Assembly: GCA_043738505.1 (NCBI GenBank)
Contig: JAYUFU010000045.1
Coordinates: 1-53,651 of the forward strand
Direction: 5' to 3'
DNA length: 53,651 nt
From: Fimbriiglobus sp.
GTDB taxonomy: Bacteria; Planctomycetota; Planctomycetia; Gemmatales; Gemmataceae
Shown here: positions 424 through 53,651 of the stretch, in pieces
Position numbering within the stretch: position 1 is the first letter of the stretch
Layout: every line of letters starts with the position of its first letter
Translations under genes and position numbers: made by a program
The notes under the pieces: model-generated
Told to the model about the DNA's origin: nothing
The model's input: the letters and a program-made list of their open reading frames with translations, nothing else
The model's database searches: none

Positions 424-966
424 ATGGCCCGCTCGCCCGCCTTCGCCCGCTGCGTGTTCGTGCCGTCGTACCACCGCGACAACCTGCCCGACGGCAGCGC
501 GGTGTTCGACGCGAGCAGCTACGCCGACCCGCCGTACTGCGCGCTCAGCCCGATGTGCGTCCACGGCGACATCCCGGTAACCGGACTGCCCTGCACCGTG
601 TCGGACACCGTCGAAGGCGTGTGGCAGGGGTTGAAGGTGATCCGCGGCAAGACCGCGCCGCGGTACTTCCGCGGGCCGGGGGCGAAGCGCGGCGGGAAGC
701 CGTCCGGCCACCAGTTCGGCACGAAGCTGCTCGGCATCGTCGAGGCGCGGCGGAAGATCTACGTCCCGACCTACGAGTGGATGCTGGACCACTGCATCAC
801 GTACCAGTTCCTCGAACACTTCATCGAGGCCGCGTTCGCCGGCGTCCCGCAGCACTTCCACGATTTGGCCGACAACGGCGACATCAACGACGCCGGCCAG
901 CCGCTCGCCCACGCCGCCGTGCTGGCGCAGTACCTGAACCGCCTGTGTGCCGAACGGGCGGGGTGA
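424..966 (+). CDS. hypothetical protein (180 aa)
   Basis: ATG at 424 lies inside listed ORF 268..966. The frame is GC3-biased with non-repetitive composition. I do not recognise a family (motifs TVEGVWQGLKVI, YVPTYEWMLDH). Confidence 0.5.
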   Translation: MARSPAFARCVFVPSYHRDNLPDGSAVFDASSYADPPYCALSPMCVHGDIPVTGLPCTVSDTVEGVWQGLKVIRGKTAPRYFRGPGAKRGGKPSGHQFGTKLLGIVEARRKIYVPTYEWMLDHCITYQFLEHFIEAAFAGVPQHFHDLADNGDINDAGQPLAHAAVLAQYLNRLCAERAG

Positions 967-1078
967 GAGATGCGCCGAACAACCCAGCTCAGCAGCGGCG
1001 GAGGCCGAGAGAGCTACACGTCTCGGAAAGCCGTCATGCCCCGCCGTCTGCTACAGCGCCTTGTTCGGCGTGCCTTTG

Positions 1079-1558
1079 CTACCGTGGCGGAAAGAGATCA
1101 ATTTGGCCTGTTCTGGTCGCAATCTCGATCGCGGATTCGCCGCCGTCGTGCTTCGCATCGGGATCGGCCCCGTGTTCGATGAGAGTTTCAATCAGATCCT
1201 TCTTCGGGTTGAAGGCCCACAGCACCTTGCTCAGGGCTGTTTCCCCGGCCTCGTTGGCGGCGTTCGGGTCGCACCCGGCACAGAGCAGAGCGAATGCGAG
1301 ATCTTTCCGCAGAAGATGGGAGGCGAAGTGGAGGAGTGTCCCCCCCTCCCGGAGCCGAACGGTCGCATCTGCCCCGCGCTTCAGGAGCATACGCACCATC
1401 CCCATGCTCAGGTTGGTGGCCGTCGCTGCCTGGACCAAGAGCGTGTACCCGTCAGCGTCCACGAGGTTGATGTTATCGGCATCGACGTACCGCTCAACGG
1501 CACGCACGTCACCCTCGTAGAGGGCGTCGATCACCTTCTCGGGATGTCCCTTGCTCAC
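1079..1558 (-). CDS. ankyrin-repeat protein
   Basis: Ankyrin-type repeats are visible (DGYTLLVQAA..MVRMLLKRGADATV; GGTLLHFAS..ALLCAGCDPNA; GETALS..LIEHGADPDA). GTG at 1558 with GAGGG 9 nt upstream is favoured. The alternative ATG at 1756 adds a Cys-rich extension that abuts the divergent gene start. Confidence 0.7.
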   Translation of the reverse strand: MSKGHPEKVIDALYEGDVRAVERYVDADNINLVDADGYTLLVQAATATNLSMGMVRMLLKRGADATVRLREGGTLLHFASHLLRKDLAFALLCAGCDPNAANEAGETALSKVLWAFNPKKDLIETLIEHGADPDAKHDGGESAIEIATRTGQIDLFPPR

Positions 1559-1761
1559 GCTGCCGCCCTCACCACCGAGACACTCGTTCGCCGCCGAACA
1601 GATACTTATCCCAACGCATGAACTGGGATCATACACGCGAGGGAAACGCGGCGTCAAGCAGCATCTCCCCGCCGTGCCGTTGCATCGCAAACAGGTGCCG
1701 CAGAATCGCACCTCGATATCCTGCTCGTAACCCGCCCTTCCCCATCCCAGAGTCACCCGCC

Positions 1762-3945
1762 ATGCGTGCCCTTCTCGCCGTGCTGTTGCTGCCCGCCGCC
1801 GCGTCCGCCCAGGGGACGAAGGCCGACTACGAACGGTCCCTGTCGCTGAACCAGCGGTTCGGCGGCAAGGTGTTCCGCGACCGCGTCGAGCCGACGTGGG
1901 CCGAGGACGGCAAGCGGCTGTGGTACACCGTGGCGCTGCCCGAAGGGAAGAAGGAGTTCGTCCTGGTGGACATCGAGAAGGGCACCCGCGAGGTGGTGGC
2001 GGAGGACAAGCTGCCGAAGGGCGGCATCAAGCCAAAGGAGCCGAAGAAGAAGGGCCTGGAATCCGCGCCCGAAAGCCCGTTCGCGGAGCATGAAGGGGGT
2101 TCGGAGTTCGACTCCGATTCCCCCTCACCCCTAACCCCTCTCCCCCAGGGGAGAGGGGGACCAGAACTGGCCGTCCTCCAGCGGCAGCCGCGCGGCAGCG
2201 GCACGTCGCCCGACGGCAAGTGGGTGGCCAGCATCAAGGACTACAACGTCGTGCTGCGGGCGGCGGACGGCAAGGACGAGACGGCGCTGTCCACCGACGG
2301 GAAGGCCGACGACCGGTACGGCCGACTGTTCTGGTCGCCGGATTCGACCCGGCTGGTCGCCTTGAAAACCAAGGCCGGCGGCGACCGCAAGGTGACGCTG
2401 GTGGAGACTTCGCCGAAAGACCAACTTCAGCCGAAGACCAGCACCTACGACTACCTGAAGCCCGGCGACCCGATCCCGCTGAGCAAGCCGAAGCTGTTCG
2501 ACATCGCCGCGAAGAAGCCGATCCCGGTGTCGGACGACCTGTTCTCGACCCCGTGGGCGATCACCGACGAACACTGGTCGAAGGACGGCACGCGGTTCCT
2601 GTTCGCGTACAACCAGCGCGGCCACACCGTCATGCGAGTGCTGAGCCTGGACGTGGAGAGCGGCGAGGTGACGGCGGTCGTCAACGAGGAGTGCAAGACG
2701 TTCTTCGACTACGCCGGCAAGCAGTTCCTGCGGTATCTGGACGACGCGGACGAGTTGATTTGGATGAGCGAGCGGGACGGCTGGAACCACCTGTACCGCA
2801 TCGACGCCAAGACCGGCGAGGTGAAGAAGCGCATCACGAAAGGCGAATGGGTGGTGCGGCGGGTGTTGAAGGTGGATATTGAGAAGCAGGTGATGGATAT
2901 CGAAGTGATGGGATACGATCCGAAGCAAGACCCGTATCATTCGCACTTCGCGCGGGTGACGTTCGACGGCAAACTGACGATGTTGACCGACGGCGACGGC
3001 ACCCACACCGCGCCCAAGTATTCCCCCGACGGCAAGCACTACGTCGTGAGTTACTCCCGCGCTGACCTGCCGCCGGTGACGGAATTACGGGGAAGTGCCG
3101 ACGGGAAGAAGGTTCTCGAACTCGAACGCGCCGACGTGACGGCCCTGGAAAAAGCCGGGTGGAAGCCGCCGGAGCGGTTCGTGGCGAAGGGCCGCGACGG
3201 GACCACCGACATCCACGGCATCCTTCACCGGCCGACCAACTTCGACCCGAAGCGGAAGTACCCGGTCATCGAATCCATCTACGCCGGGCCGCACGACTTC
3301 CACGTCCCGAAGGCGTTCCGCCCGATCCACCGGCCGGTGGCGATGGCCGAGTTGGGGTTCGTCGTCGTGCAGATCGACGGCATGGGCACCAACTGGCGGA
3401 GCAAGGCGTTCCACGACGTGTGCTGGAAGAACCTGGGCGACGGCGGGTTCCCGGATCGCATCCCGTGGATCAAGACCGCCGCCGCGAAGCACCCGGAAAT
3501 GGACCTGACCAAAGGCGTCGGCATCTACGGCGGCAGCGCCGGCGGGCAGAGCAGCACGCGGGCGGTGTTCGCCCACCCGGACTTCTACAGCGTCGCCGTG
3601 TCCGACTGCGGCTGCCACGACAACCGCATGGACAAGATTTGGTGGAACGAGTTGTGGATGAGCTGGCCCGTCGGCAAGCACTACGCCGAGCAGTCGAACA
3701 CCAACCCGGACGCGGTCAAGCAGTTCGCGGGCAAGTTGATGCTGGTGGTCGGCGAACTGGATAAAAACGTGGACCCGGCCAGCACCATGCAGGTGGCGGC
3801 CGCGCTCGTCAAGGCGAACAAGGACTTCGACCTGCTGGTGGTGCCGGGGGCCGGGCACGGGGCGTGCGAGTCGCCCTACGGCCAGCGGCGACGGGCCGAC
3901 TTCTTCGTCCGCCACTTGCTGGGCGTCGAACCGCGGGCGAAGTGA
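1762..3945 (+). CDS. secreted S9B-family serine peptidase (dipeptidyl-peptidase IV-like: beta-propeller + alpha/beta hydrolase)
   Basis: ATG at 1762 opens the signal peptide MRALLAVLLLPAAASAQG. The N-terminal region is DPP-IV-like. Catalytic motifs are GIYGGSAGG (Ser), VVGELDKNVD (Asp) and PGAGHG (His). Confidence 0.85.
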   Translation: MRALLAVLLLPAAASAQGTKADYERSLSLNQRFGGKVFRDRVEPTWAEDGKRLWYTVALPEGKKEFVLVDIEKGTREVVAEDKLPKGGIKPKEPKKKGLESAPESPFAEHEGGSEFDSDSPSPLTPLPQGRGGPELAVLQRQPRGSGTSPDGKWVASIKDYNVVLRAADGKDETALSTDGKADDRYGRLFWSPDSTRLVALKTKAGGDRKVTLVETSPKDQLQPKTSTYDYLKPGDPIPLSKPKLFDIAAKKPIPVSDDLFSTPWAITDEHWSKDGTRFLFAYNQRGHTVMRVLSLDVESGEVTAVVNEECKTFFDYAGKQFLRYLDDADELIWMSERDGWNHLYRIDAKTGEVKKRITKGEWVVRRVLKVDIEKQVMDIEVMGYDPKQDPYHSHFARVTFDGKLTMLTDGDGTHTAPKYSPDGKHYVVSYSRADLPPVTELRGSADGKKVLELERADVTALEKAGWKPPERFVAKGRDGTTDIHGILHRPTNFDPKRKYPVIESIYAGPHDFHVPKAFRPIHRPVAMAELGFVVVQIDGMGTNWRSKAFHDVCWKNLGDGGFPDRIPWIKTAAAKHPEMDLTKGVGIYGGSAGGQSSTRAVFAHPDFYSVAVSDCGCHDNRMDKIWWNELWMSWPVGKHYAEQSNTNPDAVKQFAGKLMLVVGELDKNVDPASTMQVAAALVKANKDFDLLVVPGAGHGACESPYGQRRRADFFVRHLLGVEPRAK

Positions 3946-4109
3946 TTTCCGGTCTTGCGAGCCGCGACCGCGAGGGAGTGGCACAGCGGCCGCCGGGATG
4001 CTCGCCGCGAAGAAACACGCCCGGCAATCGGCACATTCCCCGTGTCTTCACATTCCGCCGCTTCGTAAATTGTTGCCACCACTCGCTCCCACCTCGGAGG
4101 TTCTCCGTC

Positions 4110-7091
4110 ATGCGCACCCGTTCTCGTTCCCTCCTCGTTCTCGCCACCTTCGCCGGCCTGTTCGCCGTCGCGGCGGCCGCCGAGCGGGAGAAGGTCGTCG
4201 GGGCCAACTGGTCCCAGGCGAAGAAGTTCACCAGCCAGTTCGTGGACCAGCACGTCCAGACGGCCGGGTTCGTGCCGAAGTTCGTCGGGAAGACGGACCT
4301 GTTCTGGTACCAGATCCGCACCCCAGAGGGCATGAAGTACTGGAAGGTGGACCCGGCCAAGAAGACCAAGACGGCGCTGTTCGACCACGCCAAGCTGCTG
4401 GCCCAGTTGTCCGAACAGGCGCAGAAGCCCTTGGACGCGGCTTCATTCGCGCTGACCAACGCGGCCGTCACGGAGGACGGGGCGAAGATGACGTTCGTCT
4501 TCGAGCGGACGCGGTACGAGTACGACCTGGCGACGAACGTCATCAAGAAGCTCGGCGCGGCCGCCGCCGAGGTGCCGCCCATCCCCCAGGAAATCCTCGA
4601 CCGCATGACGGACGAGGAGCGGCAGGAGTACTTCACCCGCCTCCGCGAGCGGCAGGAGCAGCAGAAGAAGGACGACGAGAAGAAGGAGGACAAGAAAGAG
4701 AATGACATGAAGGACACGAAGAAGGACGACATGACCGAGGTCAAGAAGGACGAGAAGAAGGAGGACATCAAGAAGGTGGAGAAGACCGACGTTAAGAAGG
4801 ATGAGAAGAAAGAGGACACCAAGAAGATCGACGGCAAGAAAGGCGGGTTCGGCAAGGGCGGCGTCAACCCGCTGGACTACAAGGCGTACTCGCCGGACAA
4901 GAAGAAGTACCTGTACGCCTACAAGTTCAACCTGTACCTGGCGGACGAGGGCAAGGAGGCGGACGCCAAGCAGCTCTCGACCGATGGCGAGGAGGACTAC
5001 GGATACGGCGTTGGCGGGCAGACCCGGCGGAGCGACGGCACCGTCGAGAAGCCGCAGCCGCCGGTCGAGCGGAAGACCCGCCCGCAGGTGACGTGGTCGA
5101 AGGACTCGAAGCGGTTCACCGTCACCCGCACCGACCGCCGCGGGACGAAGGAGCTGTTCCTCGTCGATTCCATCGCCCAGCCGCGGCCGGCGCTGGAACG
5201 CTACCGGTACTCGATGCCCGGCGAGGAGGCCATCGTCAAGGGCGAGGTGTACGTCGGCGACGCCGATGCCAAGACGATGACCAAGCTGAAGGCGAAGTGG
5301 AAGGACGAGACGTTCACCGACATCAAATTCGGCAAGTCCTCGGACGAGGTCGAGTTCATCCGCCGCGACCGCCTCCGCCGGCACCACGAGTACTGCCGCG
5401 TGAACGTCAAGACGGGCGACGAGAAGTGCCTGATCGCCGAGGGGTTCGAGGCCGCGTACCTGGAAGTGGCCACGCCCCGCGTCGTCGAGGAGACGGACGA
5501 GGTGATCTGGTGGTCCGAGCGCTCCGGCTGGGGGCACTTCTACCTGTACGACCGCGACGGCAAGCTGAAGAACCCGATCACGGCCGGCGACTGGCGGGCC
5601 GCCCGCGTCGTGGAGGTGGACGCCAAGAACCGGCTGCTCTACTTCACCGGCAACGCCCGCGAGCCGGGCGAGAACGTCTATTACACGCACCTGTATCGCG
5701 TCCGCTTCGACGGCAGCGACCTGACCAACTTGACCCCCGGCGACGCCAACCACCGGTTCGTCCTGTCGCCGTCCAAGCAGTTCGTGGTGGACACGTTCAG
5801 CCGAGTGGACCTGCCGCAGGCCGTCGTCATCCGGGACGACAAAGGCACCGTCGTGATGGCACTGGAGAAGACGGACACGGCGCGGCTGGAGAAGACCGGC
5901 TGGAAGACGCCGGAGTGCTTCAGCGTGAAGGCCGCCGACGGCATGACCGACCTGTACGGCAACATGTGGAAGCCGTTCGACTTCGATGCCAACAAGAAGT
6001 ACCCGATCATCGTGTACGTCTACCCCGGCCCGCAGCAGGAAGGGGTGACGCACACCTTCACCGCGTGGTCCACCTACCAGCAACTGGCGCAATTGGGGTT
6101 CGTCGTCATCCAGGTCGGGCACCGCGGCGGCACCCCGGAGCGGAGCAAGGCGTACCACAGCTTCGGCTACTTCAACCTCCGCGACTACGGGCTGGTGGAC
6201 AAGAAGGCGGCCATCGAAGCCCTGGCCGCCCGGCACGCCTACATCGACATCGACCGCGTCGGCATCTACGGGCACTCCGGCGGCGGGTTCATGTCCGGCG
6301 CGGCCATGCTCCAGACGCCGTACAACGAGTTCTTCAAGGCCGCCGTCGCCAGCGCCGGCAACCACGACAACAACATTTACAACAACTTCTGGTCCGAGAC
6401 GTACCACGGGCTGAAGGAAGTGCCGTTCGACGCCAAGAAGGACGGCGCGACCGAGGGCAAGGGCACCAACACCGGCAAGGGCGGGTTCGGCGGCAAGCGG
6501 AAGAACCCGCCGGAGGCCGACGAGGAGACGGAGGTGCTGCCCCCGCCGCGCACCGCCGAGACCCCCTGGCAGGACAAGATCGACGACCTCCAGAAGAAAC
6601 TCGACGAGTTGAAGAAGCGACTGGCCGACGCCACGGGAAAGGGCACCACGAAGAAGGAGGAGATCGACGCGCTGACGGCGAAGATGACGGAGTTGCTCAA
6701 GCAGTTCGACGAGACCAAGAAGAGCCTCGACAAGACCGAGGTGAAGAAGGTGGACGAGAAGAAGGACGCCAAGTTGGAAACGCCCAAGACGCGGTTCGAC
6801 ATCAAGATTCCGACGAACGCGGAACTGGCGGCCAACCTGAAGGGACACCTGCTGCTCGTCCACGGCGAGATCGACAACAACGTCCACCCGGCGAACACCA
6901 TGCGGCTGGTGGACGCGCTCATCAAGGCGAACAAGCGGTTCGACCTGCTCATCATCCCCGGCGCGCGGCACGGGTTCGGCCCGGCCCAGCCGTACTTCAC
7001 CGACCGCATGTGGGACTTCTTCGCCGAACACCTGCTCGACGACCGCCAGACCCAGGCGGACATCAAGGTGCGGGAGCCGAAGAAGAAGTGA
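4110..7091 (+). CDS. secreted S9B-family peptidase paralog with two large K/E/D-rich insertions
   Basis: ATG at 4110 follows GGAGG and opens the signal peptide MRTRSRSLLVLATFAGLFAVAAAA. Catalytic motifs are GIYGHSGGG, LLVHGEIDNNV and IIPGARHG. Propeller and catalytic regions are colinear with the upstream paralog. Confidence 0.85.
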   Translation: MRTRSRSLLVLATFAGLFAVAAAAEREKVVGANWSQAKKFTSQFVDQHVQTAGFVPKFVGKTDLFWYQIRTPEGMKYWKVDPAKKTKTALFDHAKLLAQLSEQAQKPLDAASFALTNAAVTEDGAKMTFVFERTRYEYDLATNVIKKLGAAAAEVPPIPQEILDRMTDEERQEYFTRLRERQEQQKKDDEKKEDKKENDMKDTKKDDMTEVKKDEKKEDIKKVEKTDVKKDEKKEDTKKIDGKKGGFGKGGVNPLDYKAYSPDKKKYLYAYKFNLYLADEGKEADAKQLSTDGEEDYGYGVGGQTRRSDGTVEKPQPPVERKTRPQVTWSKDSKRFTVTRTDRRGTKELFLVDSIAQPRPALERYRYSMPGEEAIVKGEVYVGDADAKTMTKLKAKWKDETFTDIKFGKSSDEVEFIRRDRLRRHHEYCRVNVKTGDEKCLIAEGFEAAYLEVATPRVVEETDEVIWWSERSGWGHFYLYDRDGKLKNPITAGDWRAARVVEVDAKNRLLYFTGNAREPGENVYYTHLYRVRFDGSDLTNLTPGDANHRFVLSPSKQFVVDTFSRVDLPQAVVIRDDKGTVVMALEKTDTARLEKTGWKTPECFSVKAADGMTDLYGNMWKPFDFDANKKYPIIVYVYPGPQQEGVTHTFTAWSTYQQLAQLGFVVIQVGHRGGTPERSKAYHSFGYFNLRDYGLVDKKAAIEALAARHAYIDIDRVGIYGHSGGGFMSGAAMLQTPYNEFFKAAVASAGNHDNNIYNNFWSETYHGLKEVPFDAKKDGATEGKGTNTGKGGFGGKRKNPPEADEETEVLPPPRTAETPWQDKIDDLQKKLDELKKRLADATGKGTTKKEEIDALTAKMTELLKQFDETKKSLDKTEVKKVDEKKDAKLETPKTRFDIKIPTNAELAANLKGHLLLVHGEIDNNVHPANTMRLVDALIKANKRFDLLIIPGARHGFGPAQPYFTDRMWDFFAEHLLDDRQTQADIKVREPKKK

Positions 7092-10960: not shown

Positions 10961-10993
10961 CGCGTGCCGTCCCCGTGGTCCGCTCGGTCTTGC

Positions 10994-11059
10994 TAGCCCG
11001 CCGCGCAAGCGAGGGCCAGATCCCGTCAGCGGTTTGGCCCTTGCTTGCGCGGCGGGCTA
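10994..11059. repeat. intercistronic 24-bp inverted repeat (REP-like hairpin) between the ATPase and permease cistrons
   Basis: Arms 10994-11017 and 11036-11059 are reverse complements with 1 mismatch and an 18-nt loop. The right arm overlaps the TAG stop of the ATPase gene. Confidence 0.7.
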
Positions 11060-12556
11060 ACTAGTCACCCCCGTGGCCAGCCGCATGACGGCTTCCTCGG
11101 TCAGTTCGGATCGGCTCAGTTCGCCGGCCAGTCGCCCCTCGTGCAGGACGACCGCGCGGTCAGACACGCCGAGCAGCTCTTCCAGGTCGCTGGTGATCAT
11201 CCAGACGGCCACGCCCCGGCCGGCCAGTTCGTCGATGAGCGCGTAGATTTCCGTCTTCGCACCCACGTCCACGCCGCGGGTCGGTTCGTCGAGGATGAGT
11301 ACCCTCGGCCCCCGCGCCAACCATTTGCCAAAGACCACTTTCTGCTGGTTGCCGCCGGACAGCAACCCGACCGTCTGTTCGGCGGTCGGCGTCCGCACCC
11401 GTAGCTTCCGGATGCTGTCGGTGTGCATCGCCCGCTCGGCGGTGCGATCCACGAGGCCGGCCGAACGCAGGCGATCCAGGTTCGGCAGACTCAAATTGAA
11501 CCCGACGCCCTCTTCCAGCACCAGCCCGTTGCGCCGTCGGTCTTCGGGGACCAGCAGCACCCCGGCGGCCACCGCGTCGGCGGGTTTCGACACCCGGAGC
11601 GGCTTCCCAGATAGCAACACTTCGCCGCCGGTGACGGTTCGGATTCCGAAAACCGCCTCGCTCAGTTCGGTTCGCCCGGCTCCGACCAGCCCGGCCATCC
11701 CAAGCACTTCGCCGGCCCGGACTTCCAGCGACACCGGGTGCGCCGGCCCGCCGGCATACGTCAGGTTCCGCAGTTCCAGCACCGGCTTGCCGCCGACTGC
11801 CCGATGCGCGCGCGGGAAAAACGTCTTCAGGTCGCGGCCGACCATGAGCCGCACGAGGTTGTCGTGGGTGATGTCGGCCTTGGCCAGCTCGCCGGCGTTG
11901 CGGCCGTCGCGCAGCACCACCGCCCGGTCGCAACACCGCTTGATCTCGGCCAGCCGGTGCGAGATGTACATGACCCCGACGCCGGCCGCCTTCAGCGCGG
12001 CGATGACCTCGTAGAGGCGGTCGGTTTCCGGTTGCGTCAGACTGGACGTGGGTTCGTCCATGATGAGCAGCTTCGCGTTCAACCCCAGCGCGCGGGCGAT
12101 CTCGACGAGTTGCTTCTGACCCGGCGGCAGTTCGCCGACCGGCTTCCCCAGGTACGCCACCGGCAGCCCGACCCGCGTCAGCAGTTTCGCCCCGGCGTCC
12201 GCCATCGCGCGGCGGTTCAGAATCCGGAGCGGCCCGCCGACCGTGACCTCGCGTCCGAGGAACAGGTTGTCCTGGACGCTCAAGTTGTCGGCGAGGTTCA
12301 ACTCCTGGTGGATCAGGCTGACGCCCGCCGCCATCGCCGCCTGCGGGGTGGGGAACCGCACCGCCGCGCCGTTCAGCGCGACGGTGCCGCCGTCCGGCTG
12401 GTAGACGCCGGCGATCACCTTCATCAGCGTGGACTTGCCGGCCCCGTTCTCGCCGACGACGGCCAGCACCTCGCCGGCCGCGACCGAACACGACACCCCG
12501 TCCAGCGCCAGCACGCCGGGGAACTGCTTGCGGATGCCGGTGGCGGAGAGGAGCAT
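11057..12556 (-). CDS. sugar ABC transporter ATP-binding protein (tandem ATPase, RbsA-type)
   Basis: Two ABC cassettes: GENGAGKST ... LIMDEPTSSL, and a second half with LSGGNQQKV ... LILDEPTRGVD. ATG at 12556 is used; the listed start at 12583 is a TTG. Confidence 0.9.
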   Translation of the reverse strand: MLLSATGIRKQFPGVLALDGVSCSVAAGEVLAVVGENGAGKSTLMKVIAGVYQPDGGTVALNGAAVRFPTPQAAMAAGVSLIHQELNLADNLSVQDNLFLGREVTVGGPLRILNRRAMADAGAKLLTRVGLPVAYLGKPVGELPPGQKQLVEIARALGLNAKLLIMDEPTSSLTQPETDRLYEVIAALKAAGVGVMYISHRLAEIKRCCDRAVVLRDGRNAGELAKADITHDNLVRLMVGRDLKTFFPRAHRAVGGKPVLELRNLTYAGGPAHPVSLEVRAGEVLGMAGLVGAGRTELSEAVFGIRTVTGGEVLLSGKPLRVSKPADAVAAGVLLVPEDRRRNGLVLEEGVGFNLSLPNLDRLRSAGLVDRTAERAMHTDSIRKLRVRTPTAEQTVGLLSGGNQQKVVFGKWLARGPRVLILDEPTRGVDVGAKTEIYALIDELAGRGVAVWMITSDLEELLGVSDRAVVLHEGRLAGELSRSELTEEAVMRLATGVTS

Positions 12557-12581: not shown

Positions 12582-12692
12582 AAGACTCACCACAGAGACA
12601 CAGAGAAGAAAAGACAAGAGAAGAAGGAGAGTGTTCGAGAACTCTTCTCTCTCCTGTCTTCTCCGTGCCTCTGTGTCTCTGTGGTGAGTCTT
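12582..12692. repeat. long palindromic element (perfect 24-bp arms) in the SBP-ATPase intercistronic gap
   Basis: AAGACTCACCACAGAGACACAGAG (12582-12605) is the exact reverse complement of 12669-12692. The 63-nt interior is itself partly self-complementary. Confidence 0.8.
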
Positions 12693-27666: not shown

Positions 27667-27788
27667 GGGCGGAGCCTCGGAGGGGGTGTTCGCGGCGTCC
27701 TCCTTGACGACACGCTGTCTTCGGGAGGGCGAGGCCCGTGCTGCCCACATCTTCGGCGTGTCGAATTCTTTCCGCGCGGGCTCGCGTT

Positions 27789-27949
27789 CTTCACGCCGGA
27801 GGCGTGCCGGATTGTAGCCAGGGGTGAAACCCCTGGTGCCACGTTCCGCCACCCCTCCGGGGTGGGGGCGATTGGTTCTGCCGACCAGGGGTGTCGCTCG
27901 CTCCGCTCGCTCACCCCTGGCTACAATCCGCCACGCCTCCGGCGTGAAG
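27789..27949. repeat. MITE-like structured palindromic element (36-bp terminal inverted repeats, 3 internal hairpins)
   Basis: CTTCACGCCGGAGGCGTGCCGGATTGTAGCCAGGGG (27789-27824) matches the reverse complement of 27914-27949 with 1 mismatch. Internal hairpins are CCAGGGG-tgaaa-CCCCTGG, CCACCCC-tccg-GGGGTGG and CCAGGGGTG...CACCCCTGG. Confidence 0.75.
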
Positions 27950-28034
27950 ACCGGGGAACAACCCGGGTGTTCCAAGCGTTTCGTCAGTACCAACAGGTGG
28001 ACAGCACGGGCCTCGCCCGCCCCTCCGTCGGACA

Positions 28035-29742: not shown

Positions 29743-30327
29743 TCACTCGCTGTCGTCGCGCATGGCCAGGCGGTCGGGGTCGATCATCCAGTCGTCGTGG
29801 TGATCGTGGAAGTGGCCGTTGTGCAACGGGATCGGCCGCAGGGGTTTCGGCGGAACGGGTACGAGGGGAGGGGCGGTCTCCGGTTCGGTCCGAGCCGGAA
29901 GCGTGAGCGACGGTGGCGGGGATGAATCGTCGCTCACGCTTCCGACTCGGATCGGCGGAGCCGGCGGGGTGAGGGGTTCGTCCGTCGCTGACGCTTCCGG
30001 CTCCGATTTCTTCGGCTCGCGGCCACCGGGCACGCACTCCTCCATCGGGGGCAGCGGCGAGGAGTAGGCACTCACCTCCGTACCCGCGACCGGGGTCTTG
30101 TGCCGCAGGCGGGTTTTCTCCAGGTCCACGATCATCTGGAGCGCCTGGAACGACTTCTCGTCGCGCGTGCTGGCCAGTCGGCGGCGCAGTTCCGCCACCG
30201 CTTCGGCCACGGTATCTTCCCAATACTGCTTGCGTCCGGCCGCGTCGCGCGGCGGGTCGGGGACTTCCGACTCGCACCGAAAGCGGTCGGCTTGCTCGGT
30301 GACGGGCGTAGCGGTGGCAGTGTTCAC
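29743..30327 (-). CDS. hypothetical Pro-rich protein with a His/Asp-rich C-terminus
   Basis: GTG at 30327 has GGAGA 7 nt upstream, and a promoter-like TTGACA lies further upstream. The C-terminus is HNGHFHDHHDDW. The listed ORF begins at 30357. Confidence 0.5.
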   Translation of the reverse strand: MNTATATPVTEQADRFRCESEVPDPPRDAAGRKQYWEDTVAEAVAELRRRLASTRDEKSFQALQMIVDLEKTRLRHKTPVAGTEVSAYSSPLPPMEECVPGGREPKKSEPEASATDEPLTPPAPPIRVGSVSDDSSPPPSLTLPARTEPETAPPLVPVPPKPLRPIPLHNGHFHDHHDDWMIDPDRLAMRDDSE

Positions 30328-32866: not shown

Positions 32867-33553
32867 TCATGCGTCTTGGGAATGAAGGCGGTTCTGGCGA
32901 CGAAGTTCCTTCGCAACGAACGGAGACTCCGTGACAAGGGAGCGGTAGGAGATGTCTCGTTGCCAGTATCGCTCCGCGTCGCGCTCGCGTGCCCGCCGGA
33001 AATCGTTGAGTCCCAAAGCGGTCACGGTGGTATCGATCTGCTGGCGGAGGGTCAGGTCGAGTGTGGGATTGGGGATGATCTGAAACGCGACCAATTCCAA
33101 GTGGAACCACCCGTCTTCGATTGCGAACGGGTCGAGGAACTTGGAGAAGTCCTTTTTCCGGGCATTCACCAGTCCGCACGCCAGCCGATAGTTGTCCCAC
33201 TCGTACACCCTGTCCCAGTGCTTGGACTTGGGCGCGAAATGATCCGCCGTTCGCCATCCCGTGACCTCGTGGATGCGAAAGCAGGTGAACGCACAGACTT
33301 GGTGGTACGCGGCCATCAGGTCGTCGAGCGATTCCCTCCAGTACGGCGGGAATTTGTCGCCGGGGATGTCTTCGCGCTTGGTGGCGATTTTGGCGAACCG
33401 GTTGCCGGCCGAGCGTCTCGGCCGCCGGCCGATCATTTCGGCAATGGCACGCACGCCGGGGACACGTACCATTTTGTGGAAATCGTCCGGCTCCTCGGCT
33501 GGCTCGACACGTATCACTTGCCACCCCGAAGTTTGTCGCGGTAATCCGACCAC
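32867..33553 (-). CDS. HNH-type nuclease of the TIGR02646 / Septu PtuB-like family
   Basis: CAFTCFRI...TADHFAPKSKHWDRVYEWDNYRLACGLVNARK matches the C.YCE...DHF.PKS....W.NL.LAC..CN..K pattern. FLDPFAIEDGWFHLE...TALGLNDFRRARER matches the family C-terminal lidP...LN...L..R block. The start is uncertain: GTG at 33553 or GTG at 33517. Confidence 0.6.
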   Translation of the reverse strand: MVGLPRQTSGWQVIRVEPAEEPDDFHKMVRVPGVRAIAEMIGRRPRRSAGNRFAKIATKREDIPGDKFPPYWRESLDDLMAAYHQVCAFTCFRIHEVTGWRTADHFAPKSKHWDRVYEWDNYRLACGLVNARKKDFSKFLDPFAIEDGWFHLELVAFQIIPNPTLDLTLRQQIDTTVTALGLNDFRRARERDAERYWQRDISYRSLVTESPFVAKELRRQNRLHSQDA

Positions 33554-33636
33554 CGGACCCAGAATCGATCCGTCTCACCAAGAGAGGCGCGGAGAAGGAG
33601 ATCGACTTCCTCAATCTCTTTCGCGGCCGGAGCAGG

Positions 33637-34809
33637 TTAGCGAAGCAACGCCATCGCCCGGAGAATCGCTTGTTCGGCCTCCAGCGACCGCGGTTCCTTC
33701 AGGTCGAACGCATCACTCGTTAACCAGTTTGAAATGTCACCGAGCCGGACGTAGTCGCGCTTTTTCAGTTCGACTTTGTGTCCCACGAGGTCGAGATCAA
33801 ACCAAGCGTCGAGCTTGGCATCGAAATTCGGTTCGGCGGACGCCAAAATCAACGGTGAGTGAGTCGCCGCGATCAATTGTGTTTTCGCAGACGGGTGCAG
33901 TCGCTTCATCAACTTCAGGACTGATGTGAGGATTGTCCTCTGCCACCGAGGGTGCAGGTGGCTTTCGATTTCGTCGATTAGAATCACTACTTGATTCGTG
34001 AAGTCAGCGCCGATCTGCTTTGCGGCAATTCGATGTTCTTGCCATGTCCACAGGATCATGTAAGCCAGCGCGACGATTCGGCGGACACCGGACGAGGCGT
34101 GGAGAATCGGCACGGCCGGCGCATAATCCGTGGCGAGTGAGGGAACGTCCTTTCCAGAGTTCAACGACATGCGTACGAGCGGGCCGGGATTGAGTTGGTC
34201 GTGAGGGTCGGACGACGGCGACAGCGCGGTAAGCACCGCCGCCATGTTTTTGGCGGGGATGCCATTCTCGCGGATCCAAATCGCCCAATCCATCAGCAAG
34301 CCGTTGCAGACCTTTTCGGGGCCGACATCCAGTCCGTCCCACACCTGTTTCTGGGAGAACACATACCCCGGCAGCCGATCTTGTTGAACGTCGATGTTCC
34401 CTTTCTTTTTCCAGTAATTCCGTGCGGGATCCCAGACCGAGAACCCGCCGTCGGCGTGAGCGTAGACGACCAGCCCTGGGTTCCACGGTCGTCCGGGTTT
34501 CCCACTCCACGCTTGATCCAGGAGTGCGTAAGTGCTTGTGTAACTGACTTCCTTCGCTTTCGTTTTGGAAGTCAATCGGAACTCGATGGTCGCCGGTTTC
34601 TTGACATCCGTGGGACGGGCGGGGTAACCGGAGGTGAGGTTCGGGTTGACTTCTTGCGGCCAGCGGCGGGTCAGTGCCCACCACGCGACATCGAGGAGGA
34701 AACTCTTGCCTAGCCCGTTGTCGCCCGTGATGAGGTTGAGACGATCCGCCAGCTCCATCGTCATCTCGGGAGCTGGACCGACGTTTTTGAGGTGAAGAAA
34801 CTTCAGCAT
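33637..34809 (-). CDS. AAA/ABC-like ATPase, Septu PtuA-like
   Basis: Walker [15 protein letters not shown], Walker B plus D-loop [14 protein letters not shown], and downstream [12 protein letters not shown]. It lies immediately upstream of the HNH gene on the same strand, in a visibly AT-richer segment. Confidence 0.65.
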
Positions 34810-42643: not shown

Positions 42644-43314
42644 GAGCCGTTCCCGCTCGGGATGTTGTGCTTCTGAAGGAGTGCCTGGAGTCGGGCCACT
42701 TTCGCTTCAAGAGAGTCGGCCCGCTGCCGCTCGGCCTCCGCCCGCTCCGCGCGGGTGAGGATTCGCTGGCCGGTCGTGGCGTCGTAGAGGCGAAGTATGA
42801 TCCCTTCGGGCCTCATCTTGAACCCGAGGCGGCTTTCGAGCATGCCGCTGGCCCTCCGGATCGGGCGGTACGTCCCGGCGCGGAGACGATACCCCTGGAA
42901 CGGCGGCGTCAGGTGGATCCCTTGCGGGTCGAACAGGAAGTACTCCGGGATGCCGAGCGCCGCGTAGTCGCGGAACTTGCCGTTCAGGTCGACATCGACG
43001 GTGGCGGCCGACGAGAACTCGAACACCGCCGCCGGAATCACGTCGTCGTGTTCCCAGGGGCAATAGCGGTCCACCGGGGCGCGACCCACGCCAGGCACGA
43101 TCATCACGTCCGGGGCGCGGCGGCGCTCGGTCCCTTCCTGCAAGTAGAGGAACTGATCGGAGGCCACCAGCACGTCCGATTCGTCGCCGAAGAAGTCCCG
43201 CACCGCCTGATGCAGGAGGATAATCGACTCGACGTGCGTGCCAGTCTCGGCCATCGGTTCTCCGTCGCTGCTCGGGTACTCGATCACCGGCGGTCGGGGC
43301 GCGGTGGCGATCAT
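42640..43314 (-). CDS. Uma2-family (DUF820) restriction-endonuclease-like protein
   Basis: YPSSDGEPMAET..H, APDVMIV, PAAVFEFSS and IPEYFLFDP are hallmarks of the Uma2 PD-(D/E)xK family. ATGA overlaps occur at both ends. Confidence 0.85.
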   Translation of the reverse strand: MIATAPRPPVIEYPSSDGEPMAETGTHVESIILLHQAVRDFFGDESDVLVASDQFLYLQEGTERRRAPDVMIVPGVGRAPVDRYCPWEHDDVIPAAVFEFSSAATVDVDLNGKFRDYAALGIPEYFLFDPQGIHLTPPFQGYRLRAGTYRPIRRASGMLESRLGFKMRPEGIILRLYDATTGQRILTRAERAEAERQRADSLEAKVARLQALLQKHNIPSGNGS

Positions 43315-46300
43315 GTCACGTCCTCCACATCGAGCCAGTTGGGGCCGGCGGCCACGTCCACCTTCAGCGGCACGCGGAAGGTCAGGGCCGTCGTCATCTC
43401 GTGCCGCACCAGCGCGGCGAGTGTCGCCAGTTCCGCCGGGGGGACTTCAAACACCAGTTCGTCGTGTACCGTCAGCAGCATCTTCGCTGCCAACGTCTCG
43501 GCATTCATCCGGCGGTACAGGTTCAGCATCGCGACCTTCAGCAGGTCGGCGGCGGACCCTTGAATCTCCATGTTGATGGCTTCGCGCTCGGCCGCATTGC
43601 GCTGCTCGTAGCCGGACTTCGGCCGGATGGCACTGGGGTCGAACCGCCGCTGGCGGCCGAGGATCGTGGCCGCATACCCGTTCGCCCGCACCTTGGCCAA
43701 AAGCTCGTTCTGGTACGCCAGCACCTTCGGGTACTTGGCAAAGTACTCGTCGATGAACTTGGCCGCCTCCTTCTTCGGGATGCCGAGTTGGACCGACAGC
43801 CCGACGGCGCTGATGCCGTAGATGACGCCGAAGTTGACGGTTTTCGCCGCACCCCGCTGGTCCTTCGTCACCTCGGCTTCCGGCACGCCGAACACCTGCG
43901 CGGCGACGGCCGCGTGAACGTCCCGGTCCTCGGCGAACGCCCGGCCGAGGTTCTCGTCTTCGCTGAAGTGCGCGAGCAGCCGCAACTCGATCTGCGAGTA
44001 GTCGGCGGTCAACAACTGCCAGCCGTCGCGGGGCAGAAAAGCTTGGCGAATCTGTCGACCCTGTTCGGTGCGGGCGGGGATGTTCTGGAGGTTCGGGTCG
44101 GACGAACTGAGCCGCCCGGTGCTGGTCACGGCTTGATTGAAGGACGTGTGCAGCCGCCCGGTGTCCGGGTTCACCAGCGCCGGCAGGGCATCGACGTAAG
44201 TGCCCTTCAGCTTGGCCACCTGCCGGTGGCCGATGAGCGTCTTCGGCAACTCGTGGCCGAGCGCGGCGAGACGTTCCAGCGACTCGTGATCGGTACTCGG
44301 CTCGCCGGTGGTGCCCGTCCGCTTCTGCACGGGCAGCTTCATCTGGTCGAACAGGACTTCCCGGAGCTGCTTCGGCGAGGCCAGGTTGAACCCCTTGCCG
44401 GCGAGCTTGTGGGCTTCCTGTTCGAGCGCGATGAGCTGAACGTCCATCTCCTTCGACAGCTTCGCCAGGAACGGCACGTCCAGCCGGATGCCGTTGAACT
44501 CCAGTTCCGCCAGGACTTCGATGAGGGGGATTTCGAGGGCGTCGTAGAGGGTTCTCAAGTGTTCTGCTCGCTCCGCGAGCGGTCTTCCGTCTTGATCTCT
44601 GGTGGCACCGGCCTCCGAGCCGGTGCCACCAGAAGAAAGAGCCGCTCGCGGAGCGAGCAGAACACTTCCCGACAACTCCCCCTCGAACTTCTCCGTCAGC
44701 CGCCACGCGGCGTCGGCATCTTCCGCCGCATACGCGCACGCCTTCGCCACCGGCACCTCGGCCATCGTGACCTGCTTCTTGCCGGTGCCGATCAACGACT
44801 TGATCGGGACGTTCTCGTGCTGGAAGAACTCCCGCGTCAGGTCGTCCAAGTTGTGCGTGCGGGCACCGGCGTCGAGCAGGTAGTGCGCCACCATCGAGTC
44901 GCCGGCGATGCCGCGCAATGTGATGCCGTTGGCGCGCAACACCAGCAGATCGTACTTGATGTTCTGATTCACCTTCCGAATCGCCGCGTCTTCCAGGAGC
45001 GGCTTGAGTGCCGCGAGCGTGGCGGCGGGGTCGAGGACGGCGTCCGCCTTCGGCCCGCGCACGGGCAGGTAGTACGCCTTCTCCGCTTGCCAGCAGAAGG
45101 CGTAGCCGACGATCTGGCACCGCAGCGGGTCCAGGGCCGTCGTTTCCAGGTCGAACGCGAAGCGGCGCTGCGTCTTCAACTCCGCGAGGAAGTCGGCGAA
45201 TTTCTCGGCGGTGTCGATGCACTGGTAGTCGGTCTTCCAGCCGTCATCGACGGGCGCATTCAGCCCGAAGTCGAAGGAGGCGTCGCCGTCGATCACGTCG
45301 AACAGCGACGGCTGCGTCGGGCGGGGCAGTTTCGGCTTCTTCTTCGGGTCGGGGGGCGGTTCCGGTGCGCGCTCGCCTTCGTCTCGCGGCAACCCGGCGG
45401 TTTCCAGCAACTCCGCGTTCTTCTTCGCCCCACTTGTCGCCAGCGTCTTCCGCACCCGCTCGGCGTACCCGCGAAAGCCGAACTCCTGGAACAGTTCGAG
45501 CAGCCGCTGGCCGTCCCAGTCGCGGCGACGCCAGCCGTCCCAGTCCAGTGCCATCGGCACGTCGGCGCGGAGCTTCACCAACTGCTTGCACAGCGCGAGG
45601 GTGCCGTCGGCAATGGCGGCTTTCAGGGAATCGCGCAACTTCGGCTTGGCGATCTTGTCGGCGTTGGCGATCAGGTTGTCGAGGGTGTCGTACTCCTTCA
45701 GCCAGGCCGTGGCGGTCTTCGGCCCGCACCCCCTCACCCCCGGCACGTTGTCCACGCTGTCGCCGACGAGCGCCTGGAAGTCGACGACTTGATCCGGCCG
45801 CACGCCCCAGTCCTCCATCAGCCCGGCCGCGTCCAGGATCACCCCTTTGCGGAGGTTCTGCATCTTCACCGTCGGCGACAGCAACTGCCGGCAGTCCTTG
45901 TCGGACGTGCAGAGGTAGACTTCCAGCCCGCGCCCGCTGGCCTCGTGCGCGACCGTCGCCATCACGTCGTCGGCCTCGAACCCCGGCACCCGCAGCACCG
46001 GGATGCGCATGGCGTCCAGCACCTGGTCGATGAGCGGTTCCTGCGCGATCAAGTCCTCCGGCGCGGGGTCGCGGTGGCCCTTGTACTCGGCGAACAGCTC
46101 GTCGCGGAACGTCGGCTCCGGGCAGTCGAAGGTGGCGATCAGGTAGTCCGCGCCCTTGTCGTACAGGTCCATGATGGCCCGCGTGACGCCGAACACGGCG
46201 TTCGTCGGCCGGCCGTCCGGCGCGGTCATCGGCGGGATGCCGTGGAACATCTGGAACACCATGCCGTGGGCGTCCAGGAGGTACACGCGGCCGGGACCGG

Positions 46301-46331
46301 GTGCGGGCGGATTCGGGTTGGCGGCGGTCAC
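43311..46331 (-). CDS. polA: DNA polymerase I
   Basis: GTG start. The 5'-nuclease domain (LLDAHGMVFQMFH), 3'-5' exo domain and polymerase motifs (DYSQIELR, RRxAKxxNFGxxYG-type RGAAKTVNFGVIYG, VHDELVFE) are all present. It contains a palindrome-encoded insert of about 37 aa. Confidence 0.97.
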   Translation of the reverse strand: MTAANPNPPAPGPGRVYLLDAHGMVFQMFHGIPPMTAPDGRPTNAVFGVTRAIMDLYDKGADYLIATFDCPEPTFRDELFAEYKGHRDPAPEDLIAQEPLIDQVLDAMRIPVLRVPGFEADDVMATVAHEASGRGLEVYLCTSDKDCRQLLSPTVKMQNLRKGVILDAAGLMEDWGVRPDQVVDFQALVGDSVDNVPGVRGCGPKTATAWLKEYDTLDNLIANADKIAKPKLRDSLKAAIADGTLALCKQLVKLRADVPMALDWDGWRRRDWDGQRLLELFQEFGFRGYAERVRKTLATSGAKKNAELLETAGLPRDEGERAPEPPPDPKKKPKLPRPTQPSLFDVIDGDASFDFGLNAPVDDGWKTDYQCIDTAEKFADFLAELKTQRRFAFDLETTALDPLRCQIVGYAFCWQAEKAYYLPVRGPKADAVLDPAATLAALKPLLEDAAIRKVNQNIKYDLLVLRANGITLRGIAGDSMVAHYLLDAGARTHNLDDLTREFFQHENVPIKSLIGTGKKQVTMAEVPVAKACAYAAEDADAAWRLTEKFEGELSGSVLLAPRAALSSGGTGSEAGATRDQDGRPLAERAEHLRTLYDALEIPLIEVLAELEFNGIRLDVPFLAKLSKEMDVQLIALEQEAHKLAGKGFNLASPKQLREVLFDQMKLPVQKRTGTTGEPSTDHESLERLAALGHELPKTLIGHRQVAKLKGTYVDALPALVNPDTGRLHTSFNQAVTSTGRLSSSDPNLQNIPARTEQGRQIRQAFLPRDGWQLLTADYSQIELRLLAHFSEDENLGRAFAEDRDVHAAVAAQVFGVPEAEVTKDQRGAAKTVNFGVIYGISAVGLSVQLGIPKKEAAKFIDEYFAKYPKVLAYQNELLAKVRANGYAATILGRQRRFDPSAIRPKSGYEQRNAAEREAINMEIQGSAADLLKVAMLNLYRRMNAETLAAKMLLTVHDELVFEVPPAELATLAALVRHEMTTALTFRVPLKVDVAAGPNWLDVEDVT
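44557..44667. repeat. 111-nt nested palindromic element lying in frame inside polA
   Basis: Outer arms AAGTGTTCTGCTCGCTCCGCGAGCGG (44557-44582) and 44642-44667 are exact reverse complements. Inner arms CTGGTGGCACCGG (44599-44611) and 44620-44632 are also exact. The core GCTCGCTCCGCGAGCGGTCTTC recurs at 53577-53645. Confidence 0.85.
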
Positions 46332-47853: not shown

Positions 47854-48007
47854 CTTCAGCCCGAAGGGCTGTCTCCTCCAGCCCAGGGCTTCGCCCTGGG
47901 ATGCGAAGTGTTCCCCACGAGCGAGCCTTTCAGGCTCGAAGGCATTTCGATCCTGAAAACCCAGGCCGGAGGCCTGGGCTGGAGGAGACAGCCCTTCGGG
48001 CTGGAAG
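47854..48007. repeat. MITE-like structured palindromic element (34/35-nt terminal inverted repeats, 3 internal hairpins)
   Basis: CTTCAGCCCGAAGGGCTGTCTCCTCCAGCCCAGG (47854-47887) matches the reverse complement of 47973-48007 apart from a 1-nt bulge. Internal hairpins are CCCAGGG-cttcg-CCCTGGG, CGAGCC-tttca-GGCTCG and CCCAGGCC-gga-GGCCTGGG. Confidence 0.75.
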
Positions 48008-53571: not shown

Positions 53572-53651
53572 GTGCTCTGCTCGCTCCGCGAGCGGTCTTC
53601 GTTCGGGCTGGTGGAAGTGCTCGGCTCGCTCCGCGAGCGGTCTTCGGTTTG
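53572..53651. repeat. direct tandem copies (45-nt period, cut by window end) of the repeat family found inside polA
   Basis: GTGCTCTGCTCGCTCCGCGAGCGGTCTTC (53572-53600) and GTGCTCGGCTCGCTCCGCGAGCGGTCTTC (53617-53645). Unit 1 also carries the CTGGTGG block seen in the polA element. Confidence 0.75.

Follow-up and report, generated by a model that had tools for sequence, protein, structure and literature searches.

Repetitive extragenic palindromic (REP) sequences of the GTAG super-family, and the inverted REP doublets organised as REPINs, have been treated in several studies (Nunvar 2010; Bertels & Rainey 2011, PMC3116915; Di Nocera et al. 2013, PMC3733652). REPs tagged with GTAG or CGTC are known from more than 80 species, among them Planctomyces brasiliensis and P. 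limnophilus, and in-frame intragenic REPs were described from several phyla, with DNA polymerase I among the hosts (PMC3733652). In R. palustris DNA polymerase I (RPE_4821) a CGTC-3 dimer makes up residues 338–367, and it was suggested that intragenic REPs are situated in linkers or loops (PMC3733652). Here a palindromic element of 111 nt (positions 44557–44667) is described, which lies in frame within the polA gene of a member of the genus Fimbriiglobus (Planctomycetota, Gemmataceae). The sequence analysed, called the window in the following, is the whole contig JAYUFU010000045.1 of 53,651 nt, the only contig for the source organism. The element probably represents one copy of a REP/REPIN-type palindromic repeat, selfish and non-coding, which populates Fimbriiglobus-like Gemmataceae genomes.

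Inverted repeats, fold and translation define the element as a composite, i.e., a REPIN-like doublet with an additional nested hairpin; its letters are, in order, AAGTGTTCTGCTCGCTCCGCGAGCGG, TCTTCCGTCTTGATC, TCTGGTGGCACCGGC, CTCCGA, GCCGGTGCCACCAGA, AGAAAGAG and CCGCTCGCGGAGCGAGCAGAACACTT. The left REP unit (44557–44582, plus strand), recognised by exact core matches, consists of AA, the head GTGTTCT (44559–44565), a mini-hairpin GCTCGC-TCC-GCGAGC (44566–44580) and GG, and is identical to the consensus of 53 doublets taken from other genomes. The right unit (44642–44667, minus strand), found by inverted repeat and core match, is its exact reverse complement, and the repeat finder accordingly reported outer arms of 26 nt each with 100% complementarity. 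These arms are separated by 59 nt, which include a second perfect hairpin (44598–44633, from the inverted repeat) with arms TCTGGTGGCACCGGC (44598–44612) and GCCGGTGCCACCAGA (44619–44633) of 15 nt each, 100% complementary by the same program, and the 6-nt loop CTCCGA between them; it occupies the place of the loop of about 10 nt of canonical doublets. The polA copy is thus an atypical composite of the repeat family. Between outer and inner arms the left spacer measures 15 nt and the right one 8 nt, and the symmetry is therefore imperfect. RNA of the gene strand was predicted to fold with −103.6 kcal/mol, compared to −51.7 ± 4.1 for shuffled sequences (z = −12.5; equalled by 0 of 200 shuffles), and the stem is near-continuous over roughly 45–50 bp, with perfect blocks of 26 bp and 15 bp. 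Within the mRNA, a stem of this length might slow down ribosomes or become a target of RNases specific for double strands, and expression could be affected in this way. An Rfam search of the window gave no match at the gathering score, the sole matches being long-hairpin microRNA models far below threshold, and a search of viral contigs gave no hit.

An initial sequence-only reading of the window had proposed an in-frame 111-nt palindromic repeat inside polA, and inverted repeats, fold and open reading frame (ORF) confirm it. Its outer arms of 26 nt and the exact complementarity of both pairs of arms were found again; the inner arms are 15 nt long by the repeat finder, instead of the 13 nt given there, and the perfect symmetry claimed for the element is contradicted by the spacers of 15 and 8 nt.

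The host gene polA (43311–46331, minus strand) encodes DNA polymerase I (Pol I) of 1006 aa; it was identified from the ORF, which bears all DNA polymerase I domains (Pfam), and from orthologues, alignment to the Klenow fragment and an AlphaFold model. With its 111 nt the element corresponds to 37 codons, read in frame on the minus strand as PolA residues 555–591 (in context, ...SG-SVLLAPRAALSSGGTGSEAGATRDQDGRPLAERAEH-LRTLYD...). The two halves of polA remain collinear and in the same frame, and the gene order acyltransferase, polA, Uma2, coaE, rho is shared with a locus of a related organism (L086). Reading frames through the sequence are open in five of six cases for the polA element and in six of six for the canonical doublet. 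The 37 inserted residues are rich in Ala, Gly, Ser and Arg; from the predicted translation, the tryptic peptides would include AALSSGGTGSEAGATR and DQDGRPLAER.

The insert is flanked by the helix which ends the 3'-5' exonuclease domain (528–554) and by the first helix of the polymerase domain (585–613). A HMMER alignment to the Klenow fragment splits at the insert, with fragment residues up to 181 corresponding to chain residues up to 188 and a resumption at 227/201. We take residues 188 and 201 of the Klenow chain to be equivalent to residues 511–524 of E. coli Pol I, that is, the exonuclease/polymerase junction, assuming that the Klenow fragment starts at residue 324. In the AlphaFold model of PolA, built on 58 sequences, the mean predicted local distance difference test (pLDDT) score was 85.8, with values of about 40–59 in the insert and above 90 in the flanking helices; a coil at 557–576 had values below 50 (block means 66, 40, 46 and 59), and the helix from 585 onward was again above 90. 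Since the low values of the insert lie between confident helices, a disordered loop on the interdomain hinge is predicted, and the insert is probably a floppy loop of 37 residues in the hinge between exonuclease and polymerase.

For comparison, the 119 best PolA relatives were used, all Gemmataceae-like with identities of 62–89%, which gave 120 sequences together with the query (P0001). The linker comprises only 3–4 residues in 114 of the 119 orthologues, e.g., E-PAG between ...LEPEL and LRKLYDxLExPL, and one further orthologue possesses four additional linker residues. The site is empty, for example, in P0003 (locus L087), which is 83% identical to the query (BLASTP). Relative to the orthologues the net gain amounts to 34–37 codons, the position of the ancestral junction being approximate. 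An in-frame segment ahead of the LYxxIExPLxxVL helix that other Pol I proteins lack had been claimed in the sequence-only reading, and its absence from 114 of 119 Gemmataceae orthologues bears this out. Two of the ways of checking named there agreed with the claim: the orthologue alignment bounds the insert to the exonuclease/polymerase linker, with the net gain just given, and modelling of the insert-bearing protein by AlphaFold predicts a loop of low pLDDT.

The arms of the element are repeated elsewhere. Exact matches to the 22-mer core GCTCGCTCCGCGAGCGGTCTTC lie at 44566, 53579 and 53624, while none was expected from 100 shuffles, and the other arm (44642, minus strand) also contains a 17-mer core, which makes four exact cores or units in the window. 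The two copies near the end (cores at 53579–53600 and 53624–53645) are direct REP units with a period of 45 nt in non-coding DNA, recognised by core matches, and form an array at 53572–53651 on the plus strand; the end of the contig truncates this array, because the window is the whole contig. At 53607–53614, between the two direct units, GCTGGTGG is found, the Chi octamer of E. coli, probably by coincidence. A block CTGGTGG, which had been taken together with the core as a sign of recurrence in the array, was rejected as evidence, since it is a 7-mer shared with the array; the recurrence of the core stands.

A scan of one genome per species with GCTCGCTCCGCGAGCGGYYYTY as query yielded at least 85 loci. 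Among the matches listed, nearly all belonged to metagenome-assembled genomes (MAGs) of Fimbriiglobus, Gemmataceae or "Planctomycetia", with single MAGs supplying many loci each; four outsiders among them (Bradyrhizobium, an Actinomycetota MAG, a Propionibacteriales MAG and a Phycisphaeraceae MAG) each had a lone unpartnered arm, and four is about the number of chance hits that was estimated in advance. The proposed membership in a dispersed repeat family is therefore well founded for the arms, which recur in the window and in at least 85 Gemmataceae loci; the usual member of the family is, however, a REP/REPIN-like doublet of 57–65 nt and not a 111-nt element, the composite being possibly unique.

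Statistics of doublets cover the window and the at least 85 loci listed. There were 165 core occurrences, about 140 of which were arranged in 70 inverted doublets, with a modal length of 57–65 nt and a spacer of 13–16 nt in 57 of the 70. The canonical palindrome, nnnGT[GA]nTC[TC]-GCTCGCTCCGCGAGCGG-TCTTCnnnAAC-CCGCTCGCGGAGCGAGC-[AG]GAnCAC, contains two inverted units around a loop of about 10 nt, and each unit, GT[AG]NTC[TC]-GCTCGC-TCC-GCGAGC-GG, has a GT[AG]N head and its own stem of 6 bp with a 3-nt loop. The G and T that open the head do not vary among 53 copies. Heads otherwise vary with the genome (GTAGTCC, GTGTTCT, GTGCTCT, GTGGTCT): two Fimbriiglobus MAGs have GTAG and the others GTG[T/C/G]; the latter include the window, whose fourth base is off the strict consensus. 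The two arms co-vary, as 98.9% of head cells are paired, and at three positions both partners have changed in 15, 25 and 18 of 51 sequences. The habit of the family is mainly extragenic: by ORF calling with a heuristic based on GC content at third codon positions (GC3), 49 of the 70 doublets are situated within 60 nt downstream of the stop of a coding-like ORF, mostly within 10 nt. At the borders of 52 copies the longest direct repeats measured 0–3 nt, the same as in the shuffled control; target-site duplications were thus not found. Copies with long spacers at other loci (L008, L019, L030, L055, L070) hold extra repeat units or unrelated DNA, and tandem arrays of single 29-nt REP units were present at 2677–2836 of L009 and at the contig ends of L068 and L069. 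Many copies of the family lie at contig ends, and the repeats therefore appear to break MAG assemblies. Anatomy and habit of the family are those of REP sequences organised as REPINs.

Intragenic copies were few, namely 2–3 of the 70 doublets in the GC3-based frame analysis, which recovered polA and two others. In a different MAG a canonical doublet of 65 nt (L084, 3132–3196) is read in frame as NVVRSLRERSSPNRSRSERTKF (22 residues) within a FAD-dependent oxidoreductase, and the Pfam match to FAD_binding_3 in this protein spans the insert. A third in-frame case, in L041, was without Pfam support and was left uncertain. In L074 the longest ORF at 736–2268 (minus strand) begins within a REP doublet (MLCSLRERSSHPLAERAEH...), which is a spurious N-terminal extension derived from the repeat. 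This ORF of 510 aa lies between two elements and was considered as a candidate for a REP-associated tyrosine transposase (RAYT); it was rejected, as it is not a Y1 transposase. Its product, recognised by eye, is presumably SelO/YdiU-like.

The likeness to REPs and REPINs comprises a short GC-rich stem-loop with a 5' GT[AG]N tag, the prevalence of inverted doublets that form one hairpin, dispersed copies situated mostly just downstream of coding regions, occasional tandem clusters, the lack of target-site duplications, and head variants that are specific for genomes. In contrast to these systems, a RAYT gene has so far not been connected with the Gemmataceae family, the heads are mostly GTGT, GTGC or GTGG with true GTAG in some genomes only, and the 59-nt spacer of the polA copy with its nested hairpin replaces the loop of about 10 nt; because of this spacer, the polA copy fits the definition of a REPIN only loosely. 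Planctomyces spp. are listed in the surveys of GTAG REPs that were consulted, whereas Gemmataceae are not.

Proteins decorated with REPs, such as R. palustris Pol I and UvrA and DnaE2 (genes uvrA, dnaE2) of Opitutus terrae (PMC3733652), are similar in that in-frame dimers are present in replication and repair genes, encode 20–40 extra residues and were proposed to lie in linkers or loops. They differ in the repeats concerned, which are of the CGTC-3 and GTAG-17/19 families, unlike the Gemmataceae family; the insert of R. palustris Pol I, at 338–367, is far upstream of the exonuclease/polymerase junction, and that study does not report one linker being used repeatedly by different families. A likeness to the Rickettsia palindromic elements (RPE) had also been pointed out from the sequence, and it is a fair analogy. 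These elements, reportedly introduced by Ogata et al. in 2000 and thus an earlier instance of such behaviour than the intragenic REPs, are likewise palindromic repeats that lie in frame in genes which stay functional, adding peptide segments at the surface. Many RPEs are inserted in frame within ORFs (PMC3733652), whereas the Gemmataceae family, found in another host lineage, is mainly extragenic with about 3 of 70 copies intragenic, and the two are likened by behaviour alone. The phenomenon as such is already known, and the polA case in Gemmataceae is a new example of it. The remark in the sequence-only reading that it was not described for this lineage holds for Gemmataceae, as no report was found in the literature on Gemmata or Gemmataceae with such repeats; it does not hold more widely, since GTAG REPs in Planctomycetes and in-frame REPs have been published (PMC3733652).

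The following course of events would be consistent with these data. A doublet with an extra nested hairpin would have landed in the linker of four codons between the regions of polA which encode the 3'-5' exonuclease and polymerase domains. It could have survived there because its net length keeps the frame, because the reading frame in use has no stop codon, and because a solvent-exposed interdomain linker would tolerate a disordered loop which leaves both domains undisturbed. The element may have moved as single-stranded hairpin DNA, acted upon in trans by a HUH/Y1 (RAYT-like) transposase, in accordance with the model of mobilisation by RAYTs of a single-stranded hairpin that was proposed for REPINs (PMC3116915). 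HUH/Y1 enzymes of class 3 occur mainly in Planctomycetes, Acidobacteria and Proteobacteria, and HUH/Y1 proteins with REPtron-like flanks were reported in Planctomycetes (PMC6006769). Most likely, the insert was acquired recently and is carried along as a near-neutral passenger, rather than serving as a functional module.

Several points weigh against this interpretation. Neither the whole 111-nt composite nor its inner hairpin had a second copy in the repeat loci or in a metagenome scan, so that the composite may be unique, and the demonstrably repeated part of the element is the arms only; four matches to the inner hairpin in the metagenome scan were rejected as unrelated terminator-like hairpins with the same stem. 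Searches of the window and of repeat-bearing loci totalling about 0.55 Mb, made by tblastn with E. coli YafM (an approximate query), by two regular expressions for HUH...Y motifs and by Pfam scans of 30 ORFs of the window, did not reveal a HUH/Y1 transposase, and the mobilising enzyme is thus inferred only. Translation of the insert is inferred as well. With one contig only, copies in the genome are countable up to the four units visible. Finally, inserts in five of 120 PolA sequences, from four repeat families and all in one linker, represent more clustering than naive random landing predicts.

This clustering comes from four further orthologues with an enlarged linker, all encoded by hairpin-forming DNA, which belongs to three families other than that of the query. 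P0002 (L086, 89% identical to the query by BLASTP, as for the following values) has the inserted DNA GTCCCCCTCTCCCCTGGGGG...CCCCCAGGGGAGAGGGGGAC; P0025 (L088, 64%) and P0026 (L094, 64%) have units of the type GGGTAG-GCCGGCG...; and P0098 (L093, 63%) contains a palindrome GCCCGCCGCACAAGC...GCTTGCGC.... Linker segments with inserts were predicted to fold with −63 to −133 kcal/mol, compared with −29 for the empty L087. For P0025, P0026 and P0098, nearer relatives with an empty site exist at 89%, 91% and 80% identity, respectively (over shared alignment columns), and the sister sequences P0001 and P0002 carry different repeat families in the linker. From the differing families and the empty nearer relatives, up to five independent gains at one hinge may be deduced. 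The recurrent use of one Pol I hinge by different repeat families is an additional result of interest. Copies of two of these families were noticed in the window itself, that of P0098 at 10989–11064 (GCCCGCCGCGCAAGC...) and that of P0002 at 2136–2157 (CCCTCTCCCC..GGGGAGAGGG).

It could be argued from this recurrence that the linker is a true hotspot for the integration or retention of palindromic repeats in Gemmataceae, i.e., a landing site that is actively preferred or positively selected, with inserts or mRNA hairpins which modulate activity or expression of Pol I in a regulatory or mutator-type manner. Up to five gains from four unrelated palindrome families at the same four-codon linker would be in line with such a preference, as would the freedom of the folded part of PolA from other inserts: none of 12 aa or longer was detected elsewhere in it among the 120 sequences, and the long disordered linker between 5'-nuclease and exonuclease had variable segments of 12–19 aa only, at the protein level. 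REPs were likewise noted to be over-represented in genes of replication and repair by Di Nocera et al. 2013 (PMC3733652), who speculated on mutators. The insertion points, however, shift by a few codons among the lineages and the inserted peptides are unrelated, which argues against a common protein function; 114 of the 119 orthologues manage without an insert; the complete identity of the arms in the window points to an event of recent date rather than to maintenance over a long time; and a strict filter for tolerance in a highly conserved gene could alone concentrate the survivors in one linker. A hotspot in this sense is considered rather improbable, and a tolerated REP/REPIN-like passenger is preferred.

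Still less probable, in our view, is an origin as a classical miniature inverted-repeat transposable element (MITE), that is, a deletion derivative of an insertion sequence (IS) with terminal inverted repeats, moved by a DDE transposase under formation of target-site duplications. Long terminal inverted repeats, small size, many copies, the lack of coding capacity and the failure to find a RAYT would be compatible with it, and bacterial MITEs such as Correia/NEMIS, RUP, ERIC and Nezha are also small, non-coding, hairpin-forming dispersed repeats which can be present in transcripts. Their IS-derived terminal inverted repeats and target-site duplications were, however, not seen here, and the direct repeats at the boundaries of the 52 copies did not exceed chance; moreover, a short stem-loop headed by GT[AG]N makes up each arm by itself, and units are also present singly or in direct tandem arrays (53579/53624; L009), which is the behaviour of REPs and not of terminal inverted repeats. 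The notion that there was no insertion, but a native, lineage-specific expansion of the linker that is palindromic by chance, or an artefact of MAG assembly, is effectively refuted, for although the window is a single MAG contig which ends in the same repeat and linker length varies slightly among orthologues, the 22-mer is found again in exact form in other parts of the window and in dozens of further genomes, polA continues collinearly and in frame on either side of the element, with synteny conserved in L086, and independent assemblies of related organisms possess analogous inserts at the same site.

Other features of the contig were noted. It is rich in several families of hairpin repeats. 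A second palindrome of 111 nt, with perfect arms of 24 nt (AAGACTCACCACAGAGACACAGAG) and an A/G-rich interior, is situated at 12582–12692 between genes for an ABC-transporter ATPase and a periplasmic binding protein; no copy of it was found among 97 repeat and polA loci. Large palindromes, apparently intergenic, are present at 27785–27953 (43-nt arms, containing TTGTAGCC), 47857–48003 (44-nt arms) and 29886–30006 (25–27-nt arms). The region 32870–34809 (minus strand) had no ORF that passed the high-GC3 coding test; an ATPase with matches to AAA_21/AAA_15/AAA_23 at 33640–34809 adjoins a 228-aa ORF without Pfam match there, and the region may be a horizontally acquired gene pair of the defence type. 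The N-terminal part of a DPP-IV/prolyl-oligopeptidase-like ORF (3765–7088) contains, at 4663–4826, a coding tandem repeat with periods of 24–51 nt, in which Lys, Glu and Asp are abundant.

With these results, a REP/REPIN-like family is documented in the Gemmataceae, for which no description was found. The polA copy provides a clean and datable example of a selfish palindrome in frame within a core enzyme of replication and repair. For annotation it is of importance that such repeats inflate or extend predicted proteins, as in L074, and break MAG assemblies at contig ends. If the hotspot were true, it would imply either a mechanistic link between the transposition of hairpin repeats and this locus, or selection for changed expression or activity of Pol I; the latter is reminiscent of an idea, as yet unproven, that mutator variants arise through REPs in repair genes. 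Whether intragenic REPs are merely tolerated, or targeted or selected, was left open by Di Nocera et al. 2013 (PMC3733652), and the recurrence of inserts at the Pol I linker of Gemmataceae represents a small natural experiment on this question.

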